Virus record (IMG/VR): IMGVR_UViG_3300045988_107797
Coordinates: 1-53,599 of that record
DNA from: a virus
Length of the DNA stretch: 53,599 nucleotides
Strand: one strand, 5' to 3'
Under the pieces are notes generated by a model, which was not told the origin of the DNA, did not search any database, and saw only the letters and a list, made by a program, of their open reading frames with translations. Both the position numbers and the translations under genes were made by a program. Numbering within the stretch: position 1 is the stretch's first letter; every line of letters starts with the position of its first letter. Shown here piece after piece: positions 11,392 to 53,599 of this stretch.

Positions 11392-11424
11392 CCCTTCATT
11401 ATAGGGAATGTATTTTTCGCGTGA
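11392..11424 (-). promoter_or_regulatory. Copy of the conserved promoter-like block (ACGCG-N14-TATAAT)
   Basis: Coding strand reads ACGCGAAAAATACATTCCCTATAATGAAGGG. Confidence 0.55.
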
Positions 11425-11823
11425 CTAGGAATTAATATTTGATAGCTCGTTAAATTGATTCTTCATTGCCATCATGTCTGTGAAAGCTTGGTCAATTCTA
11501 TCCAATTCAATCTGGTCTGCGTAAGCTTCGTTAGCAAGAAGCCATATAAAGTAAATATAATTGATCGAATCCTGACACTTTTCGAGAAGATCGTCTCGGT
11601 CAGACCAATCGGAATATTCAACCTTATCACGAAGTGCCACAAGGTGCTTAGTCAAATATCCCCAACAGCACTGAGCCGGCGTACAGTTTGCGATACTTGC
11701 TCCCTCTTTAAAATTATGCAGAGGATCATCTTTTTTACCATATAGCGCGTTTTTATTCTTTAGAACTTTTTTAGAGGAAGCATCAAGCTCGTCAATCAGT
11801 TTATTAAATATGTCACGTGTCAT
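11425..11823 (-). CDS. DUF1599-like protein (nucleotide-modification-associated family, from memory)
   Basis: KNKNALYGKKDDPLHNF...WGYLTKHLVALRDKV is similar to the DUF1599 pattern. Confidence 0.35.
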   Translation of the reverse strand: MTRDIFNKLIDELDASSKKVLKNKNALYGKKDDPLHNFKEGASIANCTPAQCCWGYLTKHLVALRDKVEYSDWSDRDDLLEKCQDSINYIYFIWLLANEAYADQIELDRIDQAFTDMMAMKNQFNELSNINS

Positions 11824-12446: not shown

Positions 12447-13127
12447 TTAAGCCAAAATATCGACATTAGAATCATTCAGATCAGACGAATTTTCTCGAAG
12501 CTCGCAATAGGTTTCCCACGTAATCTCACGCCAATCTTTATTTTCCCTATCAGTAAAGAACCTATTGATATTGAATATTTCACCATCAGGCAACACGGCG
12601 TAGAATATCCCTTTAGTATCAAAATCACCATTTCCGTCCAAAGACAAGAAATCCTCAATATAAACTTTAATAGCATTCCCGGGACAGTACGGCATTTTAA
12701 CAGGGAAATATTCGTCCATGATTTTATCAATTAGACTGCTATGCCAAGAAGAACCGTTATGGATATCAACCCCAACGAAACGATTGACATCGGTATAATG
12801 TATCGATCCATCTGGCAATATTGTTTTAAATAGGCTGCTCATGCGTTTGTGTTGCCAGTGGTTCTCCCAAACAGGTTCTTCCCAGCTATCATCAGTATCG
12901 TAAATGGGGGTTAGAGGTCTTCCTTCAATAAGGCGGTTAAGAATGTTCTTTGTGATTTGAATACTCATCCCAGAATGCTGTACATTTGTAAGAACTTCGA
13001 AAGCTTTAAGTGCGTTTTCGTAGCATGCTACACCATACGCCCATTCGTTCCCAGATGCTGCGTCTTGCTCTCTACGGCAAGCCAATTCTACTTCGTTTTT
13101 CGCCCAATCCAGAACACTATTTTCCAT
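12447..13127 (-). CDS. Hypothetical protein (226 aa)
   Basis: ORF track. Confidence 0.6.
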   Translation of the reverse strand: MENSVLDWAKNEVELACRREQDAASGNEWAYGVACYENALKAFEVLTNVQHSGMSIQITKNILNRLIEGRPLTPIYDTDDSWEEPVWENHWQHKRMSSLFKTILPDGSIHYTDVNRFVGVDIHNGSSWHSSLIDKIMDEYFPVKMPYCPGNAIKVYIEDFLSLDGNGDFDTKGIFYAVLPDGEIFNINRFFTDRENKDWREITWETYCELRENSSDLNDSNVDILA

Positions 13128-14380: not shown

Positions 14381-14452
14381 AAAAGTAAAAGGGACTCGAA
14401 CCCTCGTCCTCTAAGTTTTAAACCTAGTGCTCTACCACTGAGCTATTACTTT
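14381..14452 (-). tRNA. tRNA with anticodon UAA (nominally Leu, codon UUA) but with class-I architecture
   Basis: 72 nt. Acceptor AAAGTAA/TTACTTT; U8. D arm GCTC-AGTGGTA-GAGC. Anticodon arm CTAGG-TTTAAAA-CTTAG (anticodon at 14418-14420). The variable loop is only AGGAC. T arm GAGGG-TTCGAGT-CCCTT. Discriminator U; no encoded CCA. Confidence 0.8.
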
Positions 14453-19878: not shown

Positions 19879-20496
19879 CTAATTCACCTCCGTTGTATCA
19901 TGGTAAAGCCTACGAGACAAAAGAATCTCGTATTCGCACTTGTAATTTTCATTACGAATATGCAGTGCGTCATCCTCGTACTCACCCATATGGTTTAGAT
20001 TTTCCAAACCTACCACGTCATCAACATTTTCGACGATATGATCATCTTCATCGGTTAAAACACCATCAATATAATAGTTCAAATTGACTATGGTGTATTC
20101 GTCATCTATGGCGAAATCTTCAGGCGAAATAATATAAGGAGGCTGATATGATGGATCGTTTAGTATTACCGGATCCAAAGATTCTTCATTATCTTTCTGT
20201 ACTACTGCATCGATCATATCTCCAGTAGCTTTAACAAGGCTCTTGGGATTAGTATAGTCGATATAACCATTCTTCGTCAGTTTCGCAGCGTACGCTATCA
20301 AATCGGGCTTTTCGTTAGTTTCTGTAGCACCATTCGAATCAACAGTTACTTCTTCCGACTCTTTCTTTTTACGATAATGCTCCCTTACCTCATTTATCTC
20401 TTCCTGCGTTTGACGTATGTACTTCTCTTTAAGCAGCCTCCAAGTCACGAATGACCCTACTGCCACACCGCCTATAAATATAATTGCTTTGTGCAT
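19879..20496 (-). CDS. N-terminally membrane-anchored acidic protein (205 aa)
   Basis: MHKAIIFIGGVAVGSFVTWRLL is a TM helix, followed by an acidic soluble part. Confidence 0.6.
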   Translation of the reverse strand: MHKAIIFIGGVAVGSFVTWRLLKEKYIRQTQEEINEVREHYRKKKESEEVTVDSNGATETNEKPDLIAYAAKLTKNGYIDYTNPKSLVKATGDMIDAVVQKDNEESLDPVILNDPSYQPPYIISPEDFAIDDEYTIVNLNYYIDGVLTDEDDHIVENVDDVVGLENLNHMGEYEDDALHIRNENYKCEYEILLSRRLYHDTTEVN

Positions 20497-22572: not shown

Positions 22573-22603
22573 CCTTCATAATAGAAAATGTAATTTTCGC
22601 GTA
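22573..22603 (-). promoter_or_regulatory. Copy of the conserved promoter-like block
   Basis: Coding strand reads ACGCGAAAATTACATTTTCTATTATGAAGG (hexamer 22578-22583, CGCG 22598-22601). Confidence 0.55.
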
Positions 22604-23371
22604 CTAACGGCAATATTTATACGTAGGAGATATGTTATAATCTACCGCTATGCACGGAGTTCCATCTTCGGACAGATGAGCGCTAAACCTAAAATTGATA
22701 AGGCCGTCCGCAATATTCCAACCCAAGTCATCTCCAATTTTTATTGGCGGCAGCCCTATTTCGTAGTAAAACTCATTAAGTGAGATGTACATTTCATTGA
22801 CGAGGCGCTTATTTACCTCGTTTTGCACATGCTTGAGTTTTTCGATATCTGATTTGAAATATCTTGATGAAATAGTATCAAAGCAAATCGTATCGCCCTT
22901 AGAGGTTATGATTACTTCGTTAGTTTTAATCGGGTTTTCTTTAATATGATCCTCCGCTATAGCGTCACGAATAATCTCATTCTTCTTTTCTCCGACGATT
23001 TCAACCACTTTTTTTTCATACTTGTTAAGAGCAGCCTCGGTTATGCTCCATGCTGCAGTCAATGCTGCTCTACGCTTAGCATTTTCCGAACTCGCTCCGA
23101 TTAGACAGGCAATAGACATCCCACTAGCTATTACAGATGGTAAATAAGAACGCCATGTGGCTTTGACTGTTTCGATCGGAGTCAATTTATCTTGATTAAG
23201 TTCCTGCTTAGATGCTTCAATCAAACGCAATGCCGTTGGCGTAGCTCTAACAGCCAATATCGTAGATGTAAGCATCCCAGTAATACCAATACCTGTTAAA
23301 ATTTCAGGATAATAGGTATTTAAAACAGTTTTGGCTTTATGCATAAATGCTGCCATTTTAGATGTGCTCAT
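22604..23371 (-). CDS. Two-TM membrane protein, paralog family member 2
   Basis: 255 aa. PEILTGIGITGMLTSTILAVRATPTA...IVGEKKNE...IGLPPIKIGDDLGWNIAD. Confidence 0.65.
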   Translation of the reverse strand: MSTSKMAAFMHKAKTVLNTYYPEILTGIGITGMLTSTILAVRATPTALRLIEASKQELNQDKLTPIETVKATWRSYLPSVIASGMSIACLIGASSENAKRRAALTAAWSITEAALNKYEKKVVEIVGEKKNEIIRDAIAEDHIKENPIKTNEVIITSKGDTICFDTISSRYFKSDIEKLKHVQNEVNKRLVNEMYISLNEFYYEIGLPPIKIGDDLGWNIADGLINFRFSAHLSEDGTPCIAVDYNISPTYKYCR

Positions 23372-23706
23372 TTCATACTCCTTTTTAATGATAACGCTTT
23401 TCTTGACAATAGAATATAAATCTCCTCTGCTGTTTCATAAGCATAAGAAAACACCACGCTTCTTGCTCCATCATTCATGCTATAAAATTCATACATCTCT
23501 TCCTTAAATTGTTTAACTGTTTGAATCGGATCGTCCGTACTACTTTCAAGTCTTTTAATTATCTCGCTTGCTGCACAAGATGAATAAGCTACTTCTTGCA
23601 GATAATAGTGGGGCCATCCGACTTTCGGTTTGGGAATAGTTTTCGAACAATAGCTACGAATGAAATTAATAGCCTGATCAGTTGTCATATTCGTCGTTTT
23701 TTGCAT
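23368..23706 (-). CDS. Hypothetical protein (112 aa)
   Basis: ORF track; ATGA-type coupling to 22604..23371. Confidence 0.55.
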   Translation of the reverse strand: MQKTTNMTTDQAINFIRSYCSKTIPKPKVGWPHYYLQEVAYSSCAASEIIKRLESSTDDPIQTVKQFKEEMYEFYSMNDGARSVVFSYAYETAEEIYILLSRKALSLKRSMK

Positions 23707-23890
23707 CTTCGAGAGCCTGACCGATTAAAGCATAAACTACAGTCTTCTGCTTTTCAGTCAATGTTTCAAAAACATCGCTTACAGTTTTTTCATTTTCTAG
23801 AACCTGACCGATTAAAGCGTAAACTACAGTCTTCTGCTTTTCATTCAATGTTTCAAAAACATCGCGTACAGTTTCTTCATTGCTCGCCAT
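23678..23890 (-). CDS. Small ORF built from two tandem copies of the capsid-gene linker segment
   Basis: 70 aa: MASNEETVRDVFETLNEKQKTVVYALIGQVLENEKTVSDVFETLTEKQKTVVYALIGQALEDAKNDEYDN. It has the same SD (GAGGAAGATAAA-ATG) and near-identical DNA to 38839..38952. Confidence 0.55.
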   Translation of the reverse strand: MASNEETVRDVFETLNEKQKTVVYALIGQVLENEKTVSDVFETLTEKQKTVVYALIGQALEDAKNDEYDN

Positions 23891-23905
23891 TTTATCTTCC
23901 TCTCA
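23702..23905. repeat. Two tandem copies of the ~105-nt segment also present at 38839..38952
   Basis: By-eye alignment: 23702-23790 and 23799-23905 each match 38839/38848-38952 with only a few mismatches. Confidence 0.85.
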
Positions 23906-23924
23906 ACGCCGCTATAAGTACTCC

Positions 23925-23953
23925 AAATAAATAAGAGTCCGTGTTCCGGACCC
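23925..23953 (-). terminator. Probable terminator
   Basis: Coding strand reads GGGTCCG-GAACA-CGGACTC, then TTATTTATTT. Confidence 0.45.
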
Positions 23954-24100
23954 TTACTGTTTGTTCGCGAGTGCTTTAGCAATCTTATCTTCGATTACTC
24001 CATCTAGCTTCTTGTCATTAATACGGTCGATGGCGAAAGTTACTGCCATTCCGATTATGCTAAGAGCTATATTCAAGATTTTAATCGTTTTAATGTTCAT
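23954..24100 (-). CDS. Small membrane protein (48 aa, below the ORF-track cutoff)
   Basis: My own translation is MNIKTIKILNIALSIIGMAVTFAIDRINDKKLDGVIEDKIAKALANKQ. GAAAGGAGG SD. It has its own promoter-like block. Confidence 0.55.
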   Translation of the reverse strand: MNIKTIKILNIALSIIGMAVTFAIDRINDKKLDGVIEDKIAKALANKQ

Positions 24101-24112
24101 AAGCTTTTAGCC

Positions 24113-24146
24113 TCCTTTCATAATATAAAATGTTTATTTCGCGTAA
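24113..24146 (-). promoter_or_regulatory. Copy of the conserved promoter-like block
   Basis: Coding strand reads ACGCGAAATAAACATTTTATATTATGAAAGGAGG (hexamer 24120-24125). Confidence 0.55.
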
Positions 24147-24171
24147 AAACAAAAAGATAATTGTGCGTAAA

Positions 24172-24951
24172 TTATTCCATATCGAGATAATCAGCTGTCG
24201 GAGGAAACGGAAAGTGAATATAAATACACTCTAACCCATCATCCAACGTCACCAATTCGTGATCGAAATCAATCCATGAATAACCATAATAACATTCGCC
24301 AGCTTCAATCGACCATCCGACAGTCTCGCCAAATAAAGTATTTGCGGGATGAAGATCCAAGAACGCATATAGTTCGTTCAGGTTTGCATAACCTCTAAGC
24401 TGGTAATTCCGATTGAAGTGATACTCGGCCAGTAATACCTCTTCTTTTGTACGAGTGAAGAATTCCCCATAATACTCTTCGAAAAACAGGAATTTTTCAT
24501 CGCTTAGCATTAAGCCAGTATTGTCATCGACTTTAGAGCGTATCATAGCACCCCTAACTTCTTTGTCGGCTTCATCGCCATAGAGCTCTCGCATCTTTGA
24601 CTTATACTCTTCATATGAATTACTCAAAATAGTATAAGCTCCGATCAATGCTTCCTTATTATTTCGGCTAATAGCGTCCGAACCTAATATACAGATTATA
24701 GTGCCCATGCATGAAATAGCGGTCGGAATATAACATTTCCAAGCTGATTGTATAGCCTCCAGCTTGGTGTAAGCATACGGGTCGCCATCATGATTAAAAC
24801 GACTATCTGCTTTTATAAGTTCATAGGCTTTTGGTGTAGCACGGATCGCAAGTATTGTCGTTACAATAACCCCTCCGGACCCTATGATCGATAGAATTGT
24901 CGAGTTGTTTCGTTTTACAAAACGTTTAATGTTCGCTATAAACCTTGTCAT
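24172..24951 (-). CDS. Two-TM membrane protein, paralog family member 3
   Basis: 259 aa. STILSIIGSGGVIVTTILAIRATPKA...LYGDEADKE...FGETVGWSIE. Confidence 0.65.
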   Translation of the reverse strand: MTRFIANIKRFVKRNNSTILSIIGSGGVIVTTILAIRATPKAYELIKADSRFNHDGDPYAYTKLEAIQSAWKCYIPTAISCMGTIICILGSDAISRNNKEALIGAYTILSNSYEEYKSKMRELYGDEADKEVRGAMIRSKVDDNTGLMLSDEKFLFFEEYYGEFFTRTKEEVLLAEYHFNRNYQLRGYANLNELYAFLDLHPANTLFGETVGWSIEAGECYYGYSWIDFDHELVTLDDGLECIYIHFPFPPTADYLDME

Positions 24952-25337: not shown

Positions 25338-25366
25338 TTCATAAAAGAAAATGTTAATTTCGCGGA
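25338..25366 (-). promoter_or_regulatory. Copy of the conserved promoter-like block
   Basis: Coding strand reads CCGCGAAATTAACATTTTCTTTTATGAAACC. It overlaps the last codons of 25354..25596. Confidence 0.5.
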
Positions 25367-25596
25367 AGAAAATCTTTCTGTTCAACAGCGAAAGTTACAA
25401 ACTTCTGTTTTGAAATATCGTCAACAGTATGCCCTTTAAGCTCCAAGAACAGATAAGGTGGTTCTTCAATATCCGAATGATCCATACGAAGAGTACCAAA
25501 AATCTCCTTGCCATCTTTTAAACCCCGCAGATAACCAGTAATCTGACCGACTATCAACAAGATAATACCCCCAATAAAGTACCAAGTGTAATTCAT
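25354..25596 (-). CDS. Small N-terminally anchored membrane protein (80 aa)
   Basis: TM helix WYFIGGIILLIVGQITGYL. Confidence 0.6.
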   Translation of the reverse strand: MNYTWYFIGGIILLIVGQITGYLRGLKDGKEIFGTLRMDHSDIEEPPYLFLELKGHTVDDISKQKFVTFAVEQKDFLPRN

Positions 25597-25901: not shown

Positions 25902-25935
25902 TCCTTTCATAACAGAAAGTGCATATTTCGCGTAG
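25902..25935 (-). promoter_or_regulatory. Copy of the conserved promoter-like block
   Basis: Coding strand reads ACGCGAAATATGCACTTTCTGTTATGAAAGGAAGG. Confidence 0.55.
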
Positions 25936-25961
25936 AAAAAAGAAAGAGCCCTCGTGGGCTC
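25936..25961 (-). terminator. Rho-independent terminator
   Basis: Coding strand reads GAGCCC-ACGA-GGGCTC, then TTTCTTTTTT. It abuts the next promoter-like block. Confidence 0.7.
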
Positions 25962-26262: not shown

Positions 26263-26296
26263 ACCTTTCATAATAGAAAATGTAGGTTTCGCGTAT
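26263..26296 (-). promoter_or_regulatory. Copy of the conserved promoter-like block
   Basis: Coding strand reads ACGCGAAACCTACATTTTCTATTATGAAAGGTAGG. Confidence 0.55.
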
Positions 26297-26379
26297 TTAC
26301 TGCCTTTCGCGATCTAATATTCAGAAGAACCGTCTGTACAATTCGTAGTAAACGTCTTTACAGCTAATCCTTAAAAATG

Positions 26380-30396: not shown

Positions 30397-33300
30397 ACAG
30401 CGTCCCTCCTTTCGACTTGCTGCTGGAGTATTCTGGATACTTCATTCGCGATTTCACGCGGATTGTCACCAGTAATTGAGAAATGATTAGTTATGGTAGT
30501 GTTCTTTTCGCCAGACATAGCATTACCAAGTTTCTTAATTTGATCGAGCATAGACGCGGTAAGACTTGCATTATTAGGCTGAAGCGGGAGTGATCCCATA
30601 GTAGTTTTTGCCAGATTAACCGTTCCATCAATAGAGTATCCATTCCAGGAATTCGAAAGCTTGTCTATACGAGTAGCCCCGGACTCTATATCCGATAAGT
30701 CTAATATGGGTCGAATCGTAGGCTGAGTATCGATGCCGTTGACAATATCCGACATTCCATTAATAGCCTTTTCCATTGCAGTCTTAGCTGTTTTGCCAAT
30801 GCCAATAGCAGAATTCGCAATACTATTTTCGGAATCCTCCAAACCCAAAGCTAAACCTTCACCGGTATATACGCCGATTTTTCTGAAAACCTTAGAAGGA
30901 GAATTAATTCCAAGCCAGCCTTTAACGGTTCTTATGGCTGCCTTAGCGATGTCTTTAGCTTTCTGCACTACAGCATCGATCATATCACCCATACCTTTGA
31001 TGAATCCTTCTATAACGGCTTTACCCGAAGCACAGAAGTCGGTTACAGCTCCGCCAGTCAAGAATTCAACAACACTGTCTATGATAGTAGTTATCAAATT
31101 CAATACTGAATTCAGAAGATCAGTGAAGTTTTCATCAATTGCCTTCGAAAGACCATCGATAAAACTTATAAGCAAGTCGAAACCCGCTTGGGCTATATCA
31201 TCCATTTTCTCACTTATACCACGAATGAGTCCCAAAACGATTTCTATACCTGCCTCAACGATAGGCTGCATGTTATTAGCAATAGTCTCTAGTAAACCCG
31301 TTATTATAGAAAGAACCTTTTCAAATATCATCGGACCATTCTCATCGATGGCCGTAAGAATAGATGTAATAAGGTTCAATATCGTAGTTACTATAAGCGG
31401 AAGAGTTTCGCCAATGGTTACGACAAGGCTCGTAATACCGTCAAGAATTGCCTGGATAATACCAGTAACGATAGCTGATACCACAGTTATCAAGGCATTT
31501 ACACTGGCCGTACTTGCTAAAGCTAAAGCGGTTAAACCAGCTGCGATGGCAGTCAATCCAGCACCAGTTAAAGCAAGACCAGCTCCGAATGCTAGTATGG
31601 CTACACCAACTAAGGCTAGTGCACCAGCCAAACCAAGAATAGTAGGTATAACGGGAGTCAAAATCGCGCCTGCCAACCCAAGAACCAGAAAAGTACCTGC
31701 AAGAGCGCCAAGAGCTACTAGCATCTTTGTAAAAGGAATATTACTTAGGATTTTTAATGCTGTACCCAATATTATTAGCGAACCTGCTACAATTGTTAAA
31801 GCAAAAGCACCCTTGACGTTGTTGTTCATTGCAGTAAGGAACAGTGCTAGTACGCCAAGTGAACCGCCGATAGCGACTATGCCCTTAGCAATGTCTTCCC
31901 ATTGAAGAGTTTGAAATATCTTTAATGCAAGGCTCAAAGTTATTAATGCTCCAGCCGCAATCGTTAAAGCAAAAGCACCTTTGATATTATCGTTCATCGC
32001 GGTAAGGAATAGTGCTAGTACGCCAAGTGACCCTCCGATAGCCACTATACCCTTAGCAATGTCTTCCCATTGAAGAGTTTGAAAGATCTTTAACGCAAGA
32101 CTCAAAGTTATTAAAGCTCCTGCCGCAATTGTTAAAGCAAAAGCCCCTTTGATATTATCGTTCATCGCGGTAAGGAACAGCGCCAAGACACCAAGTGAAC
32201 CACCGATAGCAACTATACCCTTAGCGATGTCTTCCCATTGAAGAGTTTGAAATATCTTCATGGCTCCAGCTAATATAACGACTGCTGTAGCAACGCTAAC
32301 CATAGCTAGACCGACACCTAACATTTTCTTTTGTGGAAAAGCGCGGGCTGTTGCAGTAAGAATTGCCATTACTCCGACAAGAGCCGCGATACTACGCCCT
32401 ATATCCTCTTCGGGTATTTTAGAAAGGATTTTCATTGCGCTAGCTAATATCAGCACAGAAGTTGAAATACCAACCATTGCTATAGCGATGGATCCAAATC
32501 CTTTTATACCGCCACCAAATCCCGAAAATAACTTGAGGAACAAGCCAAGTTCTGTCATCAAAGCTCCGATAGCGACAACTGATTTCATAAGTTTATCGCT
32601 TTCAATAGAAGATATAAGCATTAACGAACCAGCTAATATCCCAATCGAAATCGATATATTCAAAAGCGATTTGGCATCTATGCTGGTTTTCCAAGATGAC
32701 AAAGCATCTCGAACACCGTCCAGCACACCCACTATCGAACCTTTTATATCGCTAAATATTTGAAGAGGCTTTTTAATGCCAGATAATGCTTTTCCAAGAA
32801 ATACTGAAATAGAAGCAAGGGAAAGACTGTTGATTAGCTTTGGCATGTCCACTTTTATATTGCTAAAAAGCTTTGATAAAACTTTACTAACAAATGCAGC
32901 GCCTTTCCCAATAGCAGAAAATATATTTGTAATATGAGGCGAAGCACCAGAAAATAAACCTGTTAACCATTTTAAAACGCCGCCTATTTTTTCTCCAATA
33001 GTAACAAAAATATTTCCTTCTTCTATACTCTTGGATAAAGAAGTAACCATTTCTCCCAAAGAGCCAGTAAATTCTAAGAGTATCGGCACGAGAGATCCCG
33101 AATTATCAATAATGGATCGCACGACAGTCCAAACGCCTTTTAGAGCATCTTTGATAATACGAAGAACTGAAAATAACCCCTGAAATGTCGAAACTAAATT
33201 ATCACGATGCTTTTGTATAAAATCAGAAATTGATTTTACAAAATCACGAAAGTTTTCAGTAATCTCTACTAATCGTTCAGCGGTCATTGGAGGAAATACA

Positions 33301-37703: not shown

Positions 37704-39509
37704 TTAAGCAGAAACCTTTTCTACAGCTATGGCAGAATAGGGAAGAGTCAAGGCACCAGAGCAACGAGTTTCAATAAGATACTTCTGCTGGTTATAGTCA
37801 ATGTCGAAATCATCGAACATATTGACCGCACCACCCTTATCTGCACCAATGGTATAATCATTCGGATTGACGATAATGCCCAACAGAGTATGTACCTTAC
37901 TGTTATCATCAGTCCTTGTCAGATTCTCCATTACAGGAACAGTAACGATTTCCTTAACACGCAGAGTCGTAGCCAGTTTGGCAGCTGACTCATAGATCAC
38001 ACGACCGGTGGTGTCTTCCAGAAGAAGCATATCAGTAAGCATATCTTCAGTAGTGTACAGGGTGGGATTGCCAGAACCCTTATAATTCTTACGAGCCTTG
38101 ATGCACTGCTTAATGAAATTCTTAGCTATAGTAGATTCATTATCACTAGAAGCAACACTTACAGTCTGCTTGATTGTGTAGAAGTCGTCATCAGTCCAGA
38201 TAGGACGAATATGAATGGGATCAATCTTATCATCAGAAGAACTTACACGGCCATCACCAACCAAGATTGCCCTGGCAAGTTCTTCGTCTAGCATAATCCG
38301 CATTTCCTTCTTTATCCAAGCTACTACATCCAAATCAACGATATCAACCACATCATCACGATCCATCTTCTGCTTCTTATACACAGTAGTGGGGCTAGTG
38401 CTTCTCTTAAGCAAGGTGAAGACTTCCTCCTTCTTAAGATTACCCTTAATATAACCCTTAGCTCGAGCATCATCCTCGGTAATATTAGCGAAAAGGGACT
38501 TTATCCTAGAAAAAGGAGTATGGCGAATGTTATTCATGAGCTTGCTCACCCAATCCATATTGCGAGAAACAAATATGGGCTCATTCGTTACCGAGCGATC
38601 ATCGGGGAACAAATATCCGACATTCTCTATACCATAATCAGCATGGAACAGAGAATTGCTATCACAACCTCTATCCTGAGCAAAGTTCTCTACCGCTTCC
38701 CTCATACTGCCAGTACGCCTAGCATCAGCAAGTATAGCCTGCATATCATCAGCATGAATCATAGTGGTTTCGGGATCGACGTTATCAAATACATTATGCT
38801 TCATATTTTCTCCTCCATCTTCTTCGTCATTATCGTTTGCATCTTCGAGAGCCTGACCGATTAAAGCGTAAACTACAGTCTTCTGCTTTTCAGTCAATGT
38901 TTCAAAAACATCGCGTACAGTTTCTTCATTACTAGCCATTTTATCTTCCTCCTTTAAAGAATCACCCTTTGGACCTTGTGGACCAATATCTCCTTTCGGA
39001 CCTTTCGGACCTTTCAATGCAGCCAATTGTTCTTCTGTAAAATCATTCATGGAATTATGCTCGAGTATAAAATCTTCGCCGGTATAAATATCTGCTTCAT
39101 CTTCTACCATTTCCCCATGGCGCACCACATTACATATAGATGCTCCAGGATTAGCGCCAGCCAGGACAAGACTGACCTCTTTAATATCACCGTGAAGAAC
39201 ATTCGAGCCTTCCTGCTTAAGCTGATTTGCGAATATTGACAAAGCGGAAATATCACCATGTTCTACGAGAAGTTTAGCGGCTTTACCAGCTTCGCTTTCA
39301 TTAAACGTGCAATATGCATAAACACCATCTTCTTGATTCTTCAACAAAGCGTGACCAAGAACGTTACTAGGATCATCATGCCGATGGTTCCAAACCAACG
39401 GTACAATTTTTCCGTCACAGCCTTTAAAGGCGTCTCTACGTATTACACGGCCATCGGAGCATTTCAAATCGTTTCGAGTTGCCCAACCGTGAAAATCGTA
39501 TTTTACCAT
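37704..39509 (-). CDS. Prohead protease (HK97/S78-type) - collagen-like linker - major capsid protein fusion
   Basis: Protease part: VPLVWNHRHDD...ALSIFAN...EVSLVLAGANPGA. Linker: FTEEQLAALKGPKGPKGDIGPQGPKGD. The C-terminal ~410 aa are HK97-fold-capsid-like. Confidence 0.75.
   Translation of the reverse strand: MVKYDFHGWATRNDLKCSDGRVIRRDAFKGCDGKIVPLVWNHRHDDPSNVLGHALLKNQEDGVYAYCTFNESEAGKAAKLLVEHGDISALSIFANQLKQEGSNVLHGDIKEVSLVLAGANPGASICNVVRHGEMVEDEADIYTGEDFILEHNSMNDFTEEQLAALKGPKGPKGDIGPQGPKGDSLKEEDKMASNEETVRDVFETLTEKQKTVVYALIGQALEDANDNDEEDGGENMKHNVFDNVDPETTMIHADDMQAILADARRTGSMREAVENFAQDRGCDSNSLFHADYGIENVGYLFPDDRSVTNEPIFVSRNMDWVSKLMNNIRHTPFSRIKSLFANITEDDARAKGYIKGNLKKEEVFTLLKRSTSPTTVYKKQKMDRDDVVDIVDLDVVAWIKKEMRIMLDEELARAILVGDGRVSSSDDKIDPIHIRPIWTDDDFYTIKQTVSVASSDNESTIAKNFIKQCIKARKNYKGSGNPTLYTTEDMLTDMLLLEDTTGRVIYESAAKLATTLRVKEIVTVPVMENLTRTDDNSKVHTLLGIIVNPNDYTIGADKGGAVNMFDDFDIDYNQQKYLIETRCSGALTLPYSAIAVEKVSA
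38839..38952. repeat. Master copy of the ~105-nt segment duplicated at 23702..23905
   Basis: Read directly: TGCATCTTCGAGAGCCTGACCGATTAAAGCGTAAACTACAGTCTTCTGCTTTTCAGTCAATGTTTCAAAAACATCGCGTACAGTTTCTTCATT... Confidence 0.85.
38937..38957 (-). promoter_or_regulatory. Internal in-frame SD and ATG that could yield a separate 411-aa capsid protein
   Basis: AAAGGAGGAAGATAAA-ATG, with the ATG at 38939 (codon 191 of the fusion ORF). The same SD and ATG context recurs at 23890. Confidence 0.5.
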
Positions 39510-40795: not shown

Positions 40796-41275
40796 CTAAG
40801 CAATATTAACTTTTCGTTTACTGTATGCAACTCGGCCAGAAGCCCAAACGCCATTTTTAAGTTGATTAATATTATAACCTTGATCAGCCAAAGCCATATG
40901 TACTCCTATTTCACCACGTTTAGCGATAAATTTGACCGCTCTACCTGACGGAGCTGTTATGTTAGTTGCTTTTTCATTCATGAGTTCGGCTAATTTACGA
41001 TTATAAGAATTAATTGTAGAAGCACTAATTTTACCTTTTGATGTTCTGCTTCTAGGCTGGGACAGAAGTTGATTAGCATATCTATTCATATCCCTCGAAA
41101 CGCTCTTTTGCGTTTTAGAAACGATTTTATTATAGTTCTTATTAGCCCATTTAACATCTTTCTTTTCCAGACGTTTTTGGCCCAACTCGGTCAATGTTCC
41201 ATCAGGATTCTGATACCTTCGAATGCCCCACTTCATACCAAGAATGCCATGATGATAAAGCTCATTTTTAAACAT
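40796..41275 (-). CDS. N-box paralog 4 (159 aa)
   Basis: Begins MFKNELYHHGILGMKWGIRRYQNPDGTLTELGQKR; the C-terminus is divergent. Confidence 0.65.
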   Translation of the reverse strand: MFKNELYHHGILGMKWGIRRYQNPDGTLTELGQKRLEKKDVKWANKNYNKIVSKTQKSVSRDMNRYANQLLSQPRSRTSKGKISASTINSYNRKLAELMNEKATNITAPSGRAVKFIAKRGEIGVHMALADQGYNINQLKNGVWASGRVAYSKRKVNIA

Positions 41276-41348
41276 TCATGATAACCCTCCTTTGCTCCAA
41301 AAATTCTTTATTAAGTTCAGAATCCATGGCAGACAAAAAGTAACTTCT

Positions 41349-41690
41349 CTAATTTAAAAGCCGTTTAGCTTTTGACATTTCTTCTTTATACTGGTCTTTT
41401 ATTGATGAAAGTTGGCTATCATATATTTTTGACCGTTTAATTACCGCATCTATATCATTTCCCATTCCCTTCTTTTGAAGAACGTCGAGATCTTTTAGAA
41501 AAGAATTATATGCTTTCTTAATCCTACGAGCTTTATTTTCTTTTGCCCGCCGTTTGGCCTCTTTGTATTCGCCTTTTTTATATCGTTTCGCTGATTTTGA
41601 TACTCCAACAGAATTGGTAGATGCGCGCTTTTTATGAACGCCCCATTTCATACCAAGAACACCATAGTGATAAAGCTCATTTTTAAACAT
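41349..41690 (-). CDS. N-box paralog 3 (113 aa)
   Basis: Begins MFKNELYHYGVLGMKWGVHKKR; basic C-terminus. Confidence 0.65.
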   Translation of the reverse strand: MFKNELYHYGVLGMKWGVHKKRASTNSVGVSKSAKRYKKGEYKEAKRRAKENKARRIKKAYNSFLKDLDVLQKKGMGNDIDAVIKRSKIYDSQLSSIKDQYKEEMSKAKRLLN

Positions 41691-41705
41691 TCATGAGAAT
41701 CCTCC

Positions 41706-43451
41706 TTATTCAAATGCATCTTTATTCAGTTTATATGCAACATAAGCATCTAACATAGCTGAAACAGGATCTATCTTCTGTTCGTAACGTTTTTTTAATA
41801 GTTTACGATTACCGTTCGTATCTTCGAGCGTGATGCAATTACCCATCGCAAAAGACATAAGTTCCTCATCAAAAATAAGCATTCGTTCTTCGGACAATTT
41901 CTTCAATTCTCCAAGAGGAACCGTCTCTGTCTTGGCGCCTTGACGAACCATCTCAATTCCGAATGGTCCATTTTCAGATTGCCATCTTTCGATAAACTCT
42001 TTAGCGTTATATGGGTCATAACCAAGACAACGAACATCATATTCGGCTTCAATAATATGCCTATCAATATCTTCGAAAACTTCCATCATATCCAAAACAG
42101 TTCCCTCAAGAACGATCAGACTACCTTCTTGCATAAACTGATCATATTTAATTCTCATAGCACCTGGAAGTTTATGTAACGTAAGAGACGAAATATAGGA
42201 TCTTACTTTTACGCCGAAACGACCATTCCCCAATGGAAATAGAAATACAAAAGCACAAAAGTCGTCGCCCTGCGATAAATCGACGCCCATAGCACAAGGC
42301 ATTTTCCAAAAACTTTGTTTTCTATGAGGAAGGGTCTCTTCATATGAGAAGTAATAGGTATAACCCTCCATAGGTAGACCAAATCTCTTCGCAAGGATAT
42401 CATTTCTGGCAGCTGGAGCTTTTTCAGCTCTTTCAACATCAAGCTGATACGTTTCGTAGCTTACGGTTTTTCCAATATTCGGATTAGCCTTGATATACAT
42501 TTCAGGGTCTCCGACTTCGTCAATGGAGTCAAGCTTATACCACCAAATCGAAACGTGAGGATTGATATAGTCACCCTTAAGGATGTCTATCAATTCCATT
42601 TTGATAGTATCACCGCTTCCGTTACGAACCGTACCTTCTGAGCTGATTGCAACTATGATGTAGTCATTCACCTTAGATGCACCCTGCTCAATTGCACCGA
42701 TAACATCCTCACGAATGTCGCCAGAAAGCCACTCGTCAACGGTCGCGACCTTGATTTGTAGACCCTGAAGCTTATTGATGCTCATGGGCCTGACCTCAAG
42801 AAGTGAACCTGTAAGGAAGTTTTCAATACCCTTTTTTGTAGAGGCTAACTTTGTGCGATTTGCTTTAGAACCGGTTGTATTTTGTAAAGAGCCTTCTGTT
42901 AGAAACCGAAACAGCGGTCCTCTTGCACGGGTTATAGCAGTACGAAGAGGCGACATGACTTCCTCTGCCTGTTTCATCGTTGGTGCCGTAGTAATCTGAT
43001 GGGTGGTTGAGGTATCAACGTTCAGAAAGTAACCTTGTAAAGTTGATGCATACATTGATTTGGCAGCACCTCGTGCAACAATCAAATACTGTTTGTTGAT
43101 TAGCCGTTTCTTTATATTTTTGCGAACATAATGTCCGCCATGTCCATCCAAATTAGGCTCGTACACACTTCGTTCTACAAAATAGTACCATCCAAAAATT
43201 TGCTCGCCCCAAAGTTTAAAACTGTCAAGAAGATTAAGATCGGATCCATCAGTTAATGTCAACTCATGTTCACAGTATTTAATCCAGCCTTCAACGGCTT
43301 TATCGTCGTAATAAACGCCAGGATTGGCGATTAGATCGTCAATGCGATTCATCTCCATTGAAATTTCGCGATTAACGGGTATCTCTCCTCGTATTACAGC
43401 ATCGCGAAACATACCGTAGTATTTTGGAGTAGCTGTATTTGATAGTGCCAT
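41706..43451 (-). CDS. terL: Terminase large subunit (Terminase_1 type)
   Basis: 581 aa. YLIVARGAAKSMY (P-loop-like), VATVDEW (Walker B). Nuclease part: GVDLSQGDDFCAF...KIDPVSAMLDAY. Confidence 0.85.
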   Translation of the reverse strand: MALSNTATPKYYGMFRDAVIRGEIPVNREISMEMNRIDDLIANPGVYYDDKAVEGWIKYCEHELTLTDGSDLNLLDSFKLWGEQIFGWYYFVERSVYEPNLDGHGGHYVRKNIKKRLINKQYLIVARGAAKSMYASTLQGYFLNVDTSTTHQITTAPTMKQAEEVMSPLRTAITRARGPLFRFLTEGSLQNTTGSKANRTKLASTKKGIENFLTGSLLEVRPMSINKLQGLQIKVATVDEWLSGDIREDVIGAIEQGASKVNDYIIVAISSEGTVRNGSGDTIKMELIDILKGDYINPHVSIWWYKLDSIDEVGDPEMYIKANPNIGKTVSYETYQLDVERAEKAPAARNDILAKRFGLPMEGYTYYFSYEETLPHRKQSFWKMPCAMGVDLSQGDDFCAFVFLFPLGNGRFGVKVRSYISSLTLHKLPGAMRIKYDQFMQEGSLIVLEGTVLDMMEVFEDIDRHIIEAEYDVRCLGYDPYNAKEFIERWQSENGPFGIEMVRQGAKTETVPLGELKKLSEERMLIFDEELMSFAMGNCITLEDTNGNRKLLKKRYEQKIDPVSAMLDAYVAYKLNKDAFE

Positions 43452-43530: not shown

Positions 43531-43941
43531 TTATTTTTCTTTCAAGCTATAATTTCCAGTTGCTACGTCATAAGATACATAATAGTCATTTGAAAATTTA
43601 TTAATATATTCTTTTACTTGATTAACGCGCTTTTCAGATAACTTTTTTAATTGATTTAGACGCATTGTTTGGTCCATTCTTGCACCTGACGTAACCCATC
43701 TTCCATATAGTGCTGGGGTTAATGCTTCTTTAGCTCCAGCATCAGCTAATTTATATTGTCTATCATAAGACTTATATTTCATTATAGCTTTATCTGATTT
43801 TTTGAATGCCTTGTTAATTTTGTATTCCGCTCTTTTTCGTCCAGCATCCGTCAAACTTCCATCAGCATTCTGATATCTTCGAACACCCCACTTCATACCA
43901 AGAATACCGTGATGGTAGAGTTCATTGGTCATACTATTCAT
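43531..43941 (-). CDS. N-box paralog 2 (136 aa)
   Basis: Begins MNSMTNELYHHGILGMKWGVRRYQNADGSLTDAGRKR. Confidence 0.65.
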   Translation of the reverse strand: MNSMTNELYHHGILGMKWGVRRYQNADGSLTDAGRKRAEYKINKAFKKSDKAIMKYKSYDRQYKLADAGAKEALTPALYGRWVTSGARMDQTMRLNQLKKLSEKRVNQVKEYINKFSNDYYVSYDVATGNYSLKEK

Positions 43942-43960
43942 CCTCTCTTATTCAAAAATA

Positions 43961-44386
43961 TCACAATCCATTACGGTTAAGTTCTTTCATGAGCTGATTT
44001 CCAACAGCGTTAGCGATACCATTTCCGACTATTTTACCGACGGTAACAAGTTGGTTACTACTATTGTAAATACTTAGTGCTGTACCCATAACCCCAGCAC
44101 CAAGAACAACATATTTCCAACCCTTTTTAATCGCATTCGGATTGAGTTTCTTATAATTCTGTTCAAGTTGTGCTCTTTCGGTTAATTTTCGTAATTCCGC
44201 ATTCGACATTTCATTGATAGATTTCCGCTTCAATTGGTCGACCGTCTTTGCGTCATCGCTCCAATTGTTGGTTCGATCTCGTCTGCGTTTCTTACCGGCC
44301 GGAGTATAAGTGCCATCTTTATTCTGATAACGTCTTATACCCCACTTCATACCAAGAATACCGTGATGATACAGTTCATTTTTCAC
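43961..44386 (-). CDS. N-box paralog 1 (141 aa, GTG start) with a hydrophobic Gly-rich C-terminus
   Basis: GGAGGTG SD. Begins MKNELYHHGILGMKWGIRRYQNKDGTYTPAGKKR...; also KYVVLGAGVMGTALSIY. Confidence 0.6.
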   Translation of the reverse strand: MKNELYHHGILGMKWGIRRYQNKDGTYTPAGKKRRRDRTNNWSDDAKTVDQLKRKSINEMSNAELRKLTERAQLEQNYKKLNPNAIKKGWKYVVLGAGVMGTALSIYNSSNQLVTVGKIVGNGIANAVGNQLMKELNRNGL

Positions 44387-44388
44387 GA

Positions 44389-44745
44389 TTAATCACCTCC
44401 ATTATTGATTAGCGGAGGATCAGCTTCTACCATAAGTCTCCATTCTAATTCGACGATCTGCGCTTTTAATGATTCGAGCACGGATGCTATGGTTGGAGGA
44501 TCGAATAGAAGCCTAACTTTAGCATACATATAACTCTTAACAGCTGCAAGCTTCGAACCATCTGCAAGAAAGTCGTTCCAAGTATCCAAATCGCTTGTAA
44601 TGCTAAATCCATATTTCGGGCCAACTCCAAGCTGCTTAAGAATCATAAAAACCGAATTAATATGAATAATCAAGTCGGTATCAAAAGATGTATCCTCCTG
44701 CGATATGCCTACCAATTTCTTTACCGATATTAGTATGCTATCCAT
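44389..44745 (-). CDS. Hypothetical protein, possibly a gp6-like head-tail connector
   Basis: 118 aa. An N-terminal ISVKKLVGISQEDTSFDTDLI pattern resembles connector/adaptor proteins. Confidence 0.3.
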   Translation of the reverse strand: MDSILISVKKLVGISQEDTSFDTDLIIHINSVFMILKQLGVGPKYGFSITSDLDTWNDFLADGSKLAAVKSYMYAKVRLLFDPPTIASVLESLKAQIVELEWRLMVEADPPLINNGGD

Positions 44746-52288: not shown

Positions 52289-53599
52289 TCACCCCATTAT
52301 TAAAACATTGATAGTCAAATCGTTAGTTGGCGGCGTTGTAACGGCGCTTTGAAACGTCAATGCGTTGTAAGACTGTTTGGCGCAATATATGCCGGTTCTA
52401 AGATATTCTTCCATACTGTTAATATCCGGGCTAATAATAACTTTGTTCCTCAGTCTCACACCGTCTACTGATACAGCCTGCGTTATACTATAATCGCCAA
52501 CCACCCAATCAGTAGCCACTAATGTTGCATTTGTTTCTACAATAGGAGCTTGGTAGTCTGTGCCAGCTTCCGCCAGTTGCACATTTGTACCATTACCTTT
52601 TAGTAATCCGGTCAAATTAGTTTGCGTCTCGGTAGTGATCTCATTAGGGCCAGCGGGGCCCTGTTCGCCCTGTGCGCCCTGTGCGCCCTGTGCGCCTGGA
52701 TCGCCTTTCGCTCCCGTGTCGCCCTTTGCCCCCTGCGGGCCTTTGATGCTGACGCTTGCGGGGTTATCCAGCCCGCCGTTGTTGCTCCATGAGATTATGC
52801 CCTCAGCAGAGACGGTGGGGGTAAAATACGGCCCGGTGTCGCCCTTCGCGCCGTCCGCGCCATTGGGGCCTTGTGCGCCTTTTTCACCAGTAGCACCCTT
52901 TTCGCCCGTGTCTCCTTTAGCGCCCTTAGGAATTCCAAAGATGAATTTAAATATTTTCGAAGTGTCTTCGCCTGAAGCTTCGACTACTACTGTTGGTTCT
53001 GCATTCGGTTCGAGTTGTGTAGCAGAGGCTGTTGGGATTCCGAATCCAGCAGCTGCACCAGTTTCGCCCTTATCACCTTTTGCTCCTTGAAGTGGGCCAT
53101 TATTTACCCATTGAGAATTTTTACCATCCCATATATAAATGTCATAAGGCTCGTTTTCTCCAACTCCATAAGCATCACCAGCGGAAGGATTAGATACATT
53201 GGTTTGTAGTAATGAGACATTTGCAAAATATCCAAGAACTGCTAAACCTGAACCAGTATCTCCTTTCTCTCCCTTTTCACCTTGAATACCTTGTGGACCT
53301 TGAATACCCTGATCACCCTTTGGGCCTCGTTCGCCAATCTCTCCTTTCGGACCTATCGGACCTCTCAACGCAGCTAATTGTTCAGGTGTGAAATCCGAAT
53401 ATACAAAAGGATCGCCCTTTGGGCCTCGTTCGCCAATCTCTCCTTTCGGACCTATCGGACCTCTCAACGCAGCTAATTGTTCAGGTGTGAAATCTGAATA
53501 TACAAAAGGATCACCCTTTGGGCCTCGTTCGCCAATCTCTCCTTTCGGACCTCTCAACGCAGCTAATTGTTCAGGTGTGAAATCCGAATATACAAAAGG
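52289..53599 (-). CDS. Tail fibre / receptor-binding protein, C-terminal part (collagen-like repeats plus distal domain); continuation of 1..635
   Basis: The frame is open to the window end. Repeats of GDPFVYSDFTPEQLAALRGP(IGP)KGEIGERGPK, then long G-X-Y runs (GAKGDTGEKGATGEKGAQGPNGADGAKGDTG...). Confidence 0.75.
   Translation of the reverse strand, partial: PFVYSDFTPEQLAALRGPKGEIGERGPKGDPFVYSDFTPEQLAALRGPIGPKGEIGERGPKGDPFVYSDFTPEQLAALRGPIGPKGEIGERGPKGDQGIQGPQGIQGEKGEKGDTGSGLAVLGYFANVSLLQTNVSNPSAGDAYGVGENEPYDIYIWDGKNSQWVNNGPLQGAKGDKGETGAAAGFGIPTASATQLEPNAEPTVVVEASGEDTSKIFKFIFGIPKGAKGDTGEKGATGEKGAQGPNGADGAKGDTGPYFTPTVSAEGIISWSNNGGLDNPASVSIKGPQGAKGDTGAKGDPGAQGAQGAQGEQGPAGPNEITTETQTNLTGLLKGNGTNVQLAEAGTDYQAPIVETNATLVATDWVVGDYSITQAVSVDGVRLRNKVIISPDINSMEEYLRTGIYCAKQSYNALTFQSAVTTPPTNDLTINVLIMG
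53311..53599. repeat. Tandem 99/99/90-nt in-frame repeats in the tail-fibre gene; a fourth copy spans the junction into nt 1-55
   Basis: Units start at 53311, 53410 and 53509. AACGCAGCTAATTGTTCAGGTGTGAAATC recurs at 53367, 53466, 53556 and 1. Confidence 0.9.

Follow-up and report, generated by a model that had tools for sequence, protein, structure and literature searches.

The window considered here is the whole stretch of virus DNA that was analysed, 53,599 nt in length and from a gut phage, in which nearly all genes lie on the minus strand. One of these genes (37704..39509, minus strand) encodes a 601-aa protease-capsid fusion protein that carries the Pfam domains PF04586 and PF05065 and matches phrog_3270 over its full length (E=1.8e-220). 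Within this one gene, a prohead protease (Peptidase_S78, aa 22-134 by Pfam) is followed by a collagen-like linker, a conserved repeat and an HK97-type major capsid protein (Phage_capsid, aa 341-595), and the stretch between the two domains includes the collagen-like GPKGPKGD... and then KEEDK-MASNEETVRDVFETLTEKQKTVVYALIGQALEDA. The segment of interest (38836..38951, minus strand) contains an internal AAAGGAGGAAGATAAA-ATG, at an internal methionine of the fusion gene, followed by a helix-turn-helix repeat that occupies aa 191-225 of the fusion protein.

Approximately 15 kb from this source segment, a small ORF (23678..23890, minus strand) encodes 70 amino acids (MASNEETVRDVFETLNEKQKTVVYALIGQVLENEKTVSDVFETLTEKQKTVVYALIGQALEDAKNDEYDN) that comprise two helix-turn-helix repeat units and an acidic tail ending in ...EDAKNDEYDN. 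The final three codons and the stop derive from the target site of an insertion described below, and overlap the start of the next gene. Specifically, the TGA stop codon (23680-23678) is 6 nt downstream of the ATG of a 106-aa gene, such that the two frames overlap by 11 nt (23678-23688). A repeat search of the window found three copies of the unit. Taking 23787-23902 as the reference, the copy in the fusion gene (38836-38951) is 94% identical over 116 nt, and the remaining copy (23700-23815) is 78% identical when aligned in this register, a consequence of the 87-nt tandem period. A 69-nt core (DVFETLxEKQKTVVYALIGQxLE), for which no occurrence is expected by chance (100 shuffles), is found with no mismatches at 38844-38912, one at 23708-23776 and three at 23795-23863.

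These results bear out two claims of the first-pass annotation of this DNA, namely that a capsid-gene segment recurs twice in tandem and that it does so within an island of membrane-protein genes, which indeed consists of small membrane-protein cassettes with repeated promoter-like elements. Two further claims need amendment. The duplicated segment was said to bring its own Shine-Dalgarno (SD) sequence and ATG, and this holds for the upstream copy A (23795..23904, minus strand; core 23795-23863), where an SD-like GAGAGG, altered relative to the capsid gene (GAGAGGAAGATAAAATG versus AAAGGAGGAAGATAAAATG), precedes the ATG and the first repeat unit. It does not hold for copy B (23708..23794, minus strand; core 23708-23776), an 87-nt in-frame tandem duplicate that begins at Asn4 and carries neither signal. 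Likewise, the ORF was described as two copies of a capsid N-terminal helix. Two units are present, but the helix is an inter-domain element of the fusion protein rather than the N terminus of a capsid protein.

Phage genes surround the small ORF, which belongs to the phage genome itself and lies in a transcription unit that opens with a 48-aa membrane-protein gene (23954..24100, minus strand; from the ORF list and the loci of relatives). Directly after this gene, and just upstream of the insertion point, is a 12-bp hairpin followed by UUAUUU (23930..23958, minus strand; RNA fold z=-3.4), which by its predicted fold looks like a terminator or an RNA stabiliser, and a promoter and terminator scan of this region returned only a hairpin on the opposite strand (23937-23951). 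Downstream of the small ORF are the 106-aa gene (phrog_10740; 23368..23688, minus strand), whose true start reads MTTDQAINF, and the last gene of the unit, a DUF6353 membrane-protein paralogue (22604..23371, minus strand; PF19880, E=3.8e-75). The small ORF has its nearest candidate promoter in a sigma-70-like site upstream of the 48-aa gene (24120..24147, minus strand; TTTACG, 16 nt, TATTAT), which is a match to the consensus only and falls within one of six copies of a 37-mer (D7), five of which precede island cassettes. We considered whether the small ORF might be an autonomous cassette of the moron type, and set this idea aside because the promoter-like site precedes the 48-aa gene, the hairpin intervenes, and the ORF overlaps the next gene. 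A role in exclusion expressed from a prophage was considered unlikely, given that a scan of the larger ORFs of the window revealed no integrase.

The small ORF has the motif of the fusion-linker repeat (T-V-x-D-V-F-x-T-L-x-E-x-Q-K-x-V-V-Y-x-x-I-G-Q-A-L-E) and matches phrog_3270 at positions 176-210 only, in two stretches (E=2.2e-15). It stands alone amid accessory genes rather than between Peptidase_S78 and Phage_capsid domains, and we therefore regard it as a derivative of the phrog_3270 fusion family and not as a member. An AF2 model of the peptide (pLDDT 70.5) predicts helices at residues 8-13, 17-32, 38-41 and 46-67, in which each repeat unit would form a short helix followed by a long helix. 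The sequence LTEKQK resembles a helix N-cap. A Foldseek search of the PDB with this model gave no match with E<1 (the top entry, at a probability of 0.66, was the phage protein 2ao9, whose function is unknown), and a PDB sequence search with the fusion protein gave nothing meaningful. Small ORFs of this type have no family of their own in Pfam, PHROG or Rfam, and Rfam identified no structured RNA or RNA family at the locus.

In fusion proteins, the repeat is widely distributed. All 160 of the IMG/VR loci compared carry it within a long ORF (570-830 aa for complete genes), and it also occurs in actinophage genes annotated as ‘major capsid and protease fusion’ and in GTDB genomes, mostly Clostridia MAGs such as those of Ruminococcus and Lachnospiraceae. 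Fusion genes carry one to five tandem copies, with two in Gordonia phage Avazak and in ~25 IMG/VR loci, three in locus L127, and five in Arthrobacter phage Paella. The repeat is a deeply conserved helix-turn-helix unit between protease and capsid domains. The internal SD and ATG are a different matter. Both are invariant in 120 close alleles of the fusion gene, but most of 57 diverse family members lack the methionine that precedes the helix. We therefore rejected the possibility of a conserved internal start in the fusion gene, since the methionine is restricted to the window lineage. The internal SD and ATG are probably incidental products of Lys and Glu codons that became useful only once copied.

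Alignment of empty and filled sites reveals that the small ORF is carried by a strain-specific insertion of 225 nt (23690..23914, minus strand), whose junctions are defined by 11 filled and 13 empty sites and whose ends can be placed only to within 2-3 nt, TA(T) being present at both junctions. The insertion point lies between the hairpin and the start codon of the 106-aa accessory gene, and the inserted DNA consists, in order, of ~11 nt of filler, the SD, the ATG, the two repeat units and an EDAKNDE tail. Six of six IMG/VR contigs from very close relatives are empty at this site. In these contigs the flanking genes are present, the small ORF is absent, the downstream gene is 91-92% identical to that of the window and, in some cases, the capsid gene is near-identical; the empty site reads ...TTATTTATTTGGAGTAC(T/C)-G(A/G)-TATGACAAATGATCAGGC. 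An exact-match scan of JGI metagenomes for the left flank recovered seven more sites, every one of them empty, although the resulting 13 of 13 sites are not all independent, as at least one appears to be the same contig in both collections. One empty allele (L371) reads GGAGTACTTATATGACAA, from which TA(T) is then found at both junctions of the filled allele, and it looks like the progenitor.

A protein search of ENA/Logan data gave 22 variant small proteins of the window lineage, corresponding to ~60 contigs with the small ORF when per-cluster contig counts are summed. The first-pass annotation had held that an ORF that is missing from related genomes and gives no detectable translation product would be a neutral recombination scar. 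With regard to its presence in relatives, the evidence is divided between the IMG/VR and JGI sites, all of which lack the ORF, and the ENA/Logan contigs that carry it. In 10 of 10 ENA/Logan contigs examined, the insertion is at the same site and has identical outer junctions (left, GGAGTACT/TATAGC...GAGAGGAAGATAAAATGG; right, ...AACGACGAA/TATGACAA; the slash marks the junction), which indicates a single ancestral insertion. The simplest filled form is 138 nt in length and contains a 41-aa ORF with one repeat (L095-L097), and two-copy forms in ENA/Logan encode 68-76 aa. The derived forms, all of them in frame, are longer by 87 nt (the window and L092-L094), by 105 nt (L098, in which the second unit re-includes MASNE) or by 81 nt (L099-L101, equivalent to the 105-nt form minus 24 nt). 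The different in-frame duplication junctions of the +87 and +105 forms imply at least two independent tandem duplications after one insertion. The donor type can also be identified, because the EDAKNDE tail is absent from the window's own capsid allele (EDANDNDEED) and matches only rare capsid alleles in the population (GQALEDAKNDEDEKDND...).

As recorded in these alleles, the small ORF is shown to be a recent ectopic copy of the helix-turn-helix repeat of the fusion protein that is present in only some strains. The same comparison shows, at the sequence level, that ~110-125 nt of a capsid allele of the ‘GQALEDAKNDE...’ type, including the internal SD and ATG, were inserted at a TA(T) microhomology, that the one-repeat 41-aa ORF came first, and that in-frame duplications later gave rise to the two-repeat forms, including that of the window. 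The presence of TA(T) at both junctions together with a progenitor-like empty allele is the pattern looked for in template switching, and the ~11 nt of filler is unexplained. A comparison of the locus DNA with 50,697 phage records returned only a 56-nt match to the helix in one uncultured phage, and thus there is no cultured close relative among these records.

The similarity between the small ORF and the capsid gene had been taken by the first-pass annotation as a sign of selection or gene conversion. We rejected this argument on the strength of our diversity estimates. Among 11 filled haplotypes, nucleotide diversity is 0.036-0.052 for the insert, compared to 0.050 for the 48-aa gene and 0.022 for the 106-aa gene, and with an insert as diverse as its flanks, the 94% identity to the capsid gene reflects recent origin. 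Across 120 capsid alleles, the core DVFETLxEKQKTVVYALIGQA does not vary, whereas small-ORF units differ at these capsid-invariant positions (E>K, K>Q, V>I/A, A>T, A>V/D and T>I), which indicates that the small ORF is under weaker constraint than its capsid counterpart. Filled alleles do not differ in the SD and ATG stretch, while four sites vary in the adjacent filler. Copies A and B of the window differ by four nonsynonymous and two synonymous changes, giving a near-neutral pN/pS of 0.55. When copies are compared with each other within seven free-standing ORFs, including that of the window, the values are 0.55, 0.17, 0.14, 0.05, 0.07, 0.25 and 1.11, or 0.28 when pooled. Gene conversion from capsid alleles could account for the low values outside the window. 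In strain L092, the small-ORF copies differ from P0087, a capsid allele presumed to reside on the same contig because its longest contig equals the L092 contig in length (21,913 nt), and full homogenisation of the two loci by conversion is thus not supported for this strain.

Free-standing copies of the repeat were absent from 232 IMG/VR loci, and we found no description of them in the papers searched, Pfam or PHROGs. An exhaustive HMMER search of 1.84 billion representative proteins yielded 154 matches, of which ~60 are no longer than 150 aa. These short proteins, some of which are gene fragments and several of which are complete two-repeat proteins, match only the repeat region of phrog_3270. 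Differences in position and end points indicate that at least three lineages other than that of the window (G1) acquired free-standing copies independently, and in all three (G2, G3 and G4) the ORF is collinear with fusion genes. In G2 (P0023 and relatives; L001-L004, L102), a one- or two-repeat ORF is located between a Phage_VG64 gene and a ribonucleotide reductase gene, with Tad3, Tad8 and Lar-like genes as neighbours, and the copy runs through a remnant of MKRNVFDN, where it is frameshifted, and ends at a hairpin. In G3 (P0045, P0026; L264, L265), a 98-aa one-repeat or 104-aa two-repeat ORF is collinear with fusion genes from the protease end (..ILEH..) to MKHNIFDN, begins with the duplicated start of the downstream membrane-protein gene, and is associated with duplicated target pieces of 22 nt and 28 nt. 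The G4 copy (P0049; L266, L267) is a 122-nt fragment flanked by an 84-nt, 99%-identical target duplication, with a start (MGKKEK) borrowed from the downstream gene and junction microhomologies AAGAAAA and AAAATG. Target duplications in two lineages (50-84 nt), combined with microhomology, are a signature of replicative template switching.

One- and two-repeat forms coexist in G1, G2 and G3, and the second repeat has been gained convergently, at least twice in G1, through three junction types in G2, and in G3. Two-repeat ORFs are also located after a ThyX-like gene (L268) and before an XRE-type regulator gene (L269). Perhaps the most informative case is L275, a 56-kb contig binned with a Ruminococcus MAG, which has a terminase-portal-fusion module as in the window and a 92-aa two-repeat ORF between the portal and fusion genes, each of which it overlaps. 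Compared with the resident capsid repeat, the repeats of this ORF are diverged (~47% identity for one unit), the frame is intact, and homologues exist at 45-50% identity. We regard this ORF as an older example inside a head module, for which ~4 stop codons would be expected, by a rough estimate, had the fragment been neutral.

Given these observations, we propose that the small ORF encodes a translated mimic of the scaffold repeat that modulates head assembly, a tentative reading to which we assign slightly less than an even chance of being correct. Among possible functions, and arguing by analogy, that of a scaffold or delta-domain mimic remains the most attractive. In these phages, which lack a separate scaffolding gene, the repeat follows the protease and precedes the HK97-fold domain, and from this position it is most plausibly a transient internal scaffold, by analogy with the delta domain of HK97 and D3, lambda C/Nu3 and P2 gpO. 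In the proposed sequence of events, template switching during replication produced the insertion, transcription from the promoter-like element ahead of the 48-aa gene would read through into the small ORF, and the ribosome-binding site brought in with the copy would direct its translation. A free peptide of one or two repeats might then join or cap the same helix bundles as the fusion repeat, and might, as an additional or competing scaffold element, tune the assembly of procapsids, whether those of its own phage or of a co-infecting relative.

Several features of the sequences suggest that such a mimic has been favoured. The independent origins are all translatable, a point to be read with the fact that free-standing copies were found via protein databases, which would miss untranslatable copies. 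Second repeats have been gained in frame, and most copy pairs have an excess of synonymous changes. The insertion persists across strains that differ by 3-5%, despite the presence of a 15-kb direct repeat, and the independent recurrences, together with the diverged two-repeat ORF in the head module of L275, lend the proposal indirect support. Against it, the filled site is a minority allele, as indicated by the 13 of 13 empty IMG/VR and JGI sites, none of 232 IMG/VR loci has a free-standing copy, constraint is relaxed, and the two copies within the window differ in a near-neutral pattern. Since most strains lack the small ORF, it must be dispensable.

The main rival to this proposal is that the small ORF is a near-neutral by-product of recombination, which we think possible but rather doubtful. 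By this account, template switching sporadically pastes fragments of the slippage-prone and highly repetitive linker at new sites, where they look like genes only because of an SD and ATG that are carried along or happen to be adjacent, and such ORFs are born frequently and lost quickly. The emptiness of every IMG/VR and JGI site is as expected for such a minority allele, as are the rarity of free-standing copies (~60 short proteins, including fragments, among 154 matches in 1.84 billion representatives), the equal diversity of insert and flanks, the relaxation of constraint relative to the capsid copy, and the decay of the 3' part of the G2 copy. Another transfer in the same genome, from a collagen repeat of the tail fibre to the capsid linker, fits the same picture, and the target duplications and microhomologies point to a mutational mechanism. 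However, a purely neutral process does not readily account for the retention of several independent in-frame duplications, or for the synonymous excess in most copy pairs. The two-repeat ORFs of L275, L268 and L269 are diverged yet open, which is difficult to reconcile with neutrality given the stop codons expected for L275 on our rough estimate. Moreover, the insertion has been kept by strains 3-5% apart even though recombination across the 15-kb direct repeat could delete the tail genes.

A second alternative is that the peptide is irrelevant and that the frame is kept open as a leader ORF, because the 106-aa and DUF6353 genes are translated only by coupling. Empty sites have GGAG, 8 nt and then ATG before the 106-aa gene, whereas filled sites have no SD before that ATG, which is only 6 nt upstream of the small ORF stop. 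The original SD of the 106-aa gene (GGAG) has been pushed ~225 nt upstream by the insertion, and therefore this gene probably relies now on coupling to the small ORF for its translation. A frameshift variant (P0017) that ends in an ATGA overlap with the same ATG is also consistent with a leader function. Coupling of this kind leaves most of the other cases unexplained, which makes it unlikely as the reason for the existence of the ORF. In G2, a hairpin follows the ORF and the next gene has its own SD; in G3 and G4, it was the downstream gene's own start that was duplicated; and neither L275 nor the repeated gain of a second repeat is accounted for.

We consider it quite improbable that the peptide is a counter-defence decoy, that is, a fragment of the capsid precursor made early to mask, titrate or pre-empt a host sensor of the capsid, scaffold or prohead protease. 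What speaks for it is purely contextual: the accessory regions that harbour these ORFs are rich in counter-defence genes, with Tad3 and Tad8 near the G2 copy, a Tad2-like/Sequestin gene near the G4 copy and a Tad3 homologue in the window. Capsid-sensing Thoeris has been documented (PMC11312562), and escape from CBASS via mutations in virion assembly proteins is reported in a preprint (10.1101/2023.05.21.541620). Nevertheless, the documented Thoeris sensor is reported to bind the hexameric major head protein and not a scaffold peptide (PMC11312562), and the L275 ORF is inside a head module rather than among defence genes.

Most improbable of all is that the locus is a silent donor cassette or a DNA or RNA element, providing the capsid linker with a template for gene conversion or sequestering, as a decoy, a regulator that acts on the capsid gene's internal ribosome-binding site: some polymorphisms are common to the capsid and small-ORF copies (T/N at one position, TAC/TAT) and the capsid linker varies greatly in length between strains, but the small-ORF copies of L092 differ from its presumed resident capsid allele, the locus yielded no structured RNA, and the capsid helix core is invariant.

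Returning to the scaffold-mimic proposal, we can speculate further, as no better than a doubtful possibility, that fusion phages repeatedly spin off the 30-aa repeat as free mini-proteins of one to three repeats. These would constitute an unrecognised class of phage-encoded scaffold mimics that adjust procapsid nucleation or size, or that poison head assembly in co-infecting relatives with the same motif, and that undergo rapid birth by template switching, tandem expansion and loss. An active peptide would represent a phage's own version of scaffold mimics known so far only from satellites (CpmB, Sid), and it would offer a natural handle on the uncharacterised and very widespread head-assembly repeat of phrog_3270 fusions, which are found in phages of gut Clostridia and in many actinophages. 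The proposal is directly testable, given that natural isogenic empty, one-repeat and two-repeat alleles exist. Even if the peptide is inactive, the locus records a clean and datable birth of an ORF from a fragment of an essential gene, with the progenitor, the insertion and the expansions all still present.

In outline, the small ORF can be compared with scaffold-motif mimics and with ORFs derived from gene fragments. In the lambda C/Nu3 and P2 gpO systems, a single reading frame encodes both protease and scaffold and can contain a nested internal start. The window's fusion gene is similar in combining a protease and a scaffold-like part, with a perfect internal SD and ATG before the repeat, and PMC6893505 covers part of what is known of the two model systems. 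Unlike a nested start, the small ORF would supply an extra product from a second locus 15 kb away, and we rejected a nested scaffold of the lambda C/Nu3 type for the fusion gene, given the absence of the methionine from most of the 57 diverse family members.

The delta domain of HK97 and D3 resembles the repeat in that both are helical segments N-terminal to an HK97-fold domain in phages without a separate scaffolding gene, and both are presumably removed by the prohead protease. The two have no detectable relationship in sequence or fold, and the repeat differs in being a 30-aa helix-turn-helix present in one to five copies with the protease upstream in the same polypeptide. Free-standing delta-domain genes are not described in PMC10275583 or PMC12749128. 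The window's fusion gene belongs to the wider family of protease-capsid fusion genes, with which it shares the repeat motif, and the general genome layout is shared as well, with small membrane-protein genes forming an island that lies downstream of the tail genes (preprint 10.1101/2020.01.10.891226). Two cultured phages of this family were inspected, and in both every copy of the repeat is inside the fusion gene and none is free-standing.

By analogy, the closest functional counterpart of the small ORF is CpmB (gp6) of SaPI1, a satellite-encoded protein with a proven role in redirecting capsid size, which reproduces the capsid-binding motif at the C terminus of a separate scaffolding protein (PMC6893505). 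Both are ~70 aa in length and all-helical (for the small ORF, as predicted by the AF2 model with a pLDDT of 70.5), both carry the short motif of the assembly protein with which they would compete, which in the small ORF is identical to that of the phage's own fusion protein and may be an interaction surface, and both could sit in the procapsid at the place of the scaffold. The small ORF differs in that it resides on the phage genome itself rather than on a satellite that redirects capsid size, takes its repeat from the phage's own protease-capsid fusion and varies between strains, and its function is a proposed one, whereas that of CpmB is proven.

The protease-capsid fusion gene appears to have shared coding material with the tail-fibre region. 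Its collagen-like linker (FTEEQLAAL-KGPKGPKGD..., window 38960-39058) is 73% identical in DNA sequence to the 99-nt tandem repeats of a collagen-like tail-fibre gene, which occupy 53311-53598 and 1-60. The linker is wholly absent from some capsid alleles (571 aa, P0169-P0171), and the tail-fibre wording KGEIGERGPKGD is present in other capsid alleles. The likeness suggests that this is a second case of a segment moving within the genome, and one that is likewise polymorphic among strains. A 47-nt direct repeat with 83% identity (20186-20232 and 30952-30998; repeat family D10), which connects a 205-aa gene beside the island of membrane-protein cassettes with the tape-measure gene, may be another small transfer of this kind or a shared motif. 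The tail-fibre repeat array contains both ends of the window, and positions 1-60 recur at 53367-53426 with 98% identity (family D8). A genome of about 53.4 kb, either circularly permuted or terminally redundant, is probable.

A repeat search in the window recovered six copies of a 37-nt element carrying a -10-like TATTAT (22575-22611, 24117-24153, 25338-25374, 25906-25942, 26267-26303 and 11395-11431). Five of the six lie directly upstream of small island genes, and the elements probably serve as a related set of promoters for the cassettes. In the relatives L086-L091 and L100-L101, an extra membrane-protein cassette of about 64 aa lies between the DUF6353 gene (24172-24951 in the window) and the 48-aa gene; the window is without this cassette, and the corresponding site is at about 24105-24170. 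The breakpoints of the cassette fall within the repeated promoter-like elements, and therefore the island gains and loses cassettes. Within the same island, the ORF list includes a 112-aa open frame on the plus strand (23596-23934), antisense to the small ORF built of two helix-turn-helix repeats. This frame, in which LQSSAFxSMFQKH occurs twice, simply mirrors the tandem repeat of the small ORF, and a real gene here is very improbable.

Repeated DNA is also found beside the terminase and portal genes, where four neighbouring genes have in common the conserved N-terminus MFKNELYHHGILGMKWG and the DNA that encodes it (families D5 and D6; 41159-41292, 41636-41707, 43819-43952 and 44273-44406). 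Judged by these shared segments, the four constitute a paralogous family. The early region of the window holds a gene homologous to Tad3, an inhibitor of Thoeris (12447-13127; PF25185, E=2.5e-28), together with a single tRNA gene (14381-14452), and no integrase was found among the larger ORFs scanned in the window.

Among 57 diverse fusion proteins that were compared, the motif MKHNVFD is near-universal, with Met sometimes replaced by Val, and is located about 40 aa past the helix. In the window it spans residues 231-243 of the fusion protein (about 38800-38830) and is preceded by GGAGGAGAAAAT-ATG, which gives the fusion gene a second internal start of SD-like type. MKHNVFD may be conserved as a cleavage site or as an N-terminal motif, or else may mark a real nested start.

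The number of helix-turn-helix repeats differs between the fusion genes compared (L271, L005, L006-L010 and L104-L129), which hints that repeat number is tied to genome or capsid size, a relationship that has exceptions and draws on contigs that may be incomplete. One repeat is present in the fusion gene of the window (53 kb), two in gp19 of Gordonia phage Avazak (L005; 60 kb) and in the fusion genes of several IMG/VR contigs that are 80-97 kb long, three in the fusion gene of L127, and five in gp28 of Arthrobacter phage Paella (L271; 113.7 kb).
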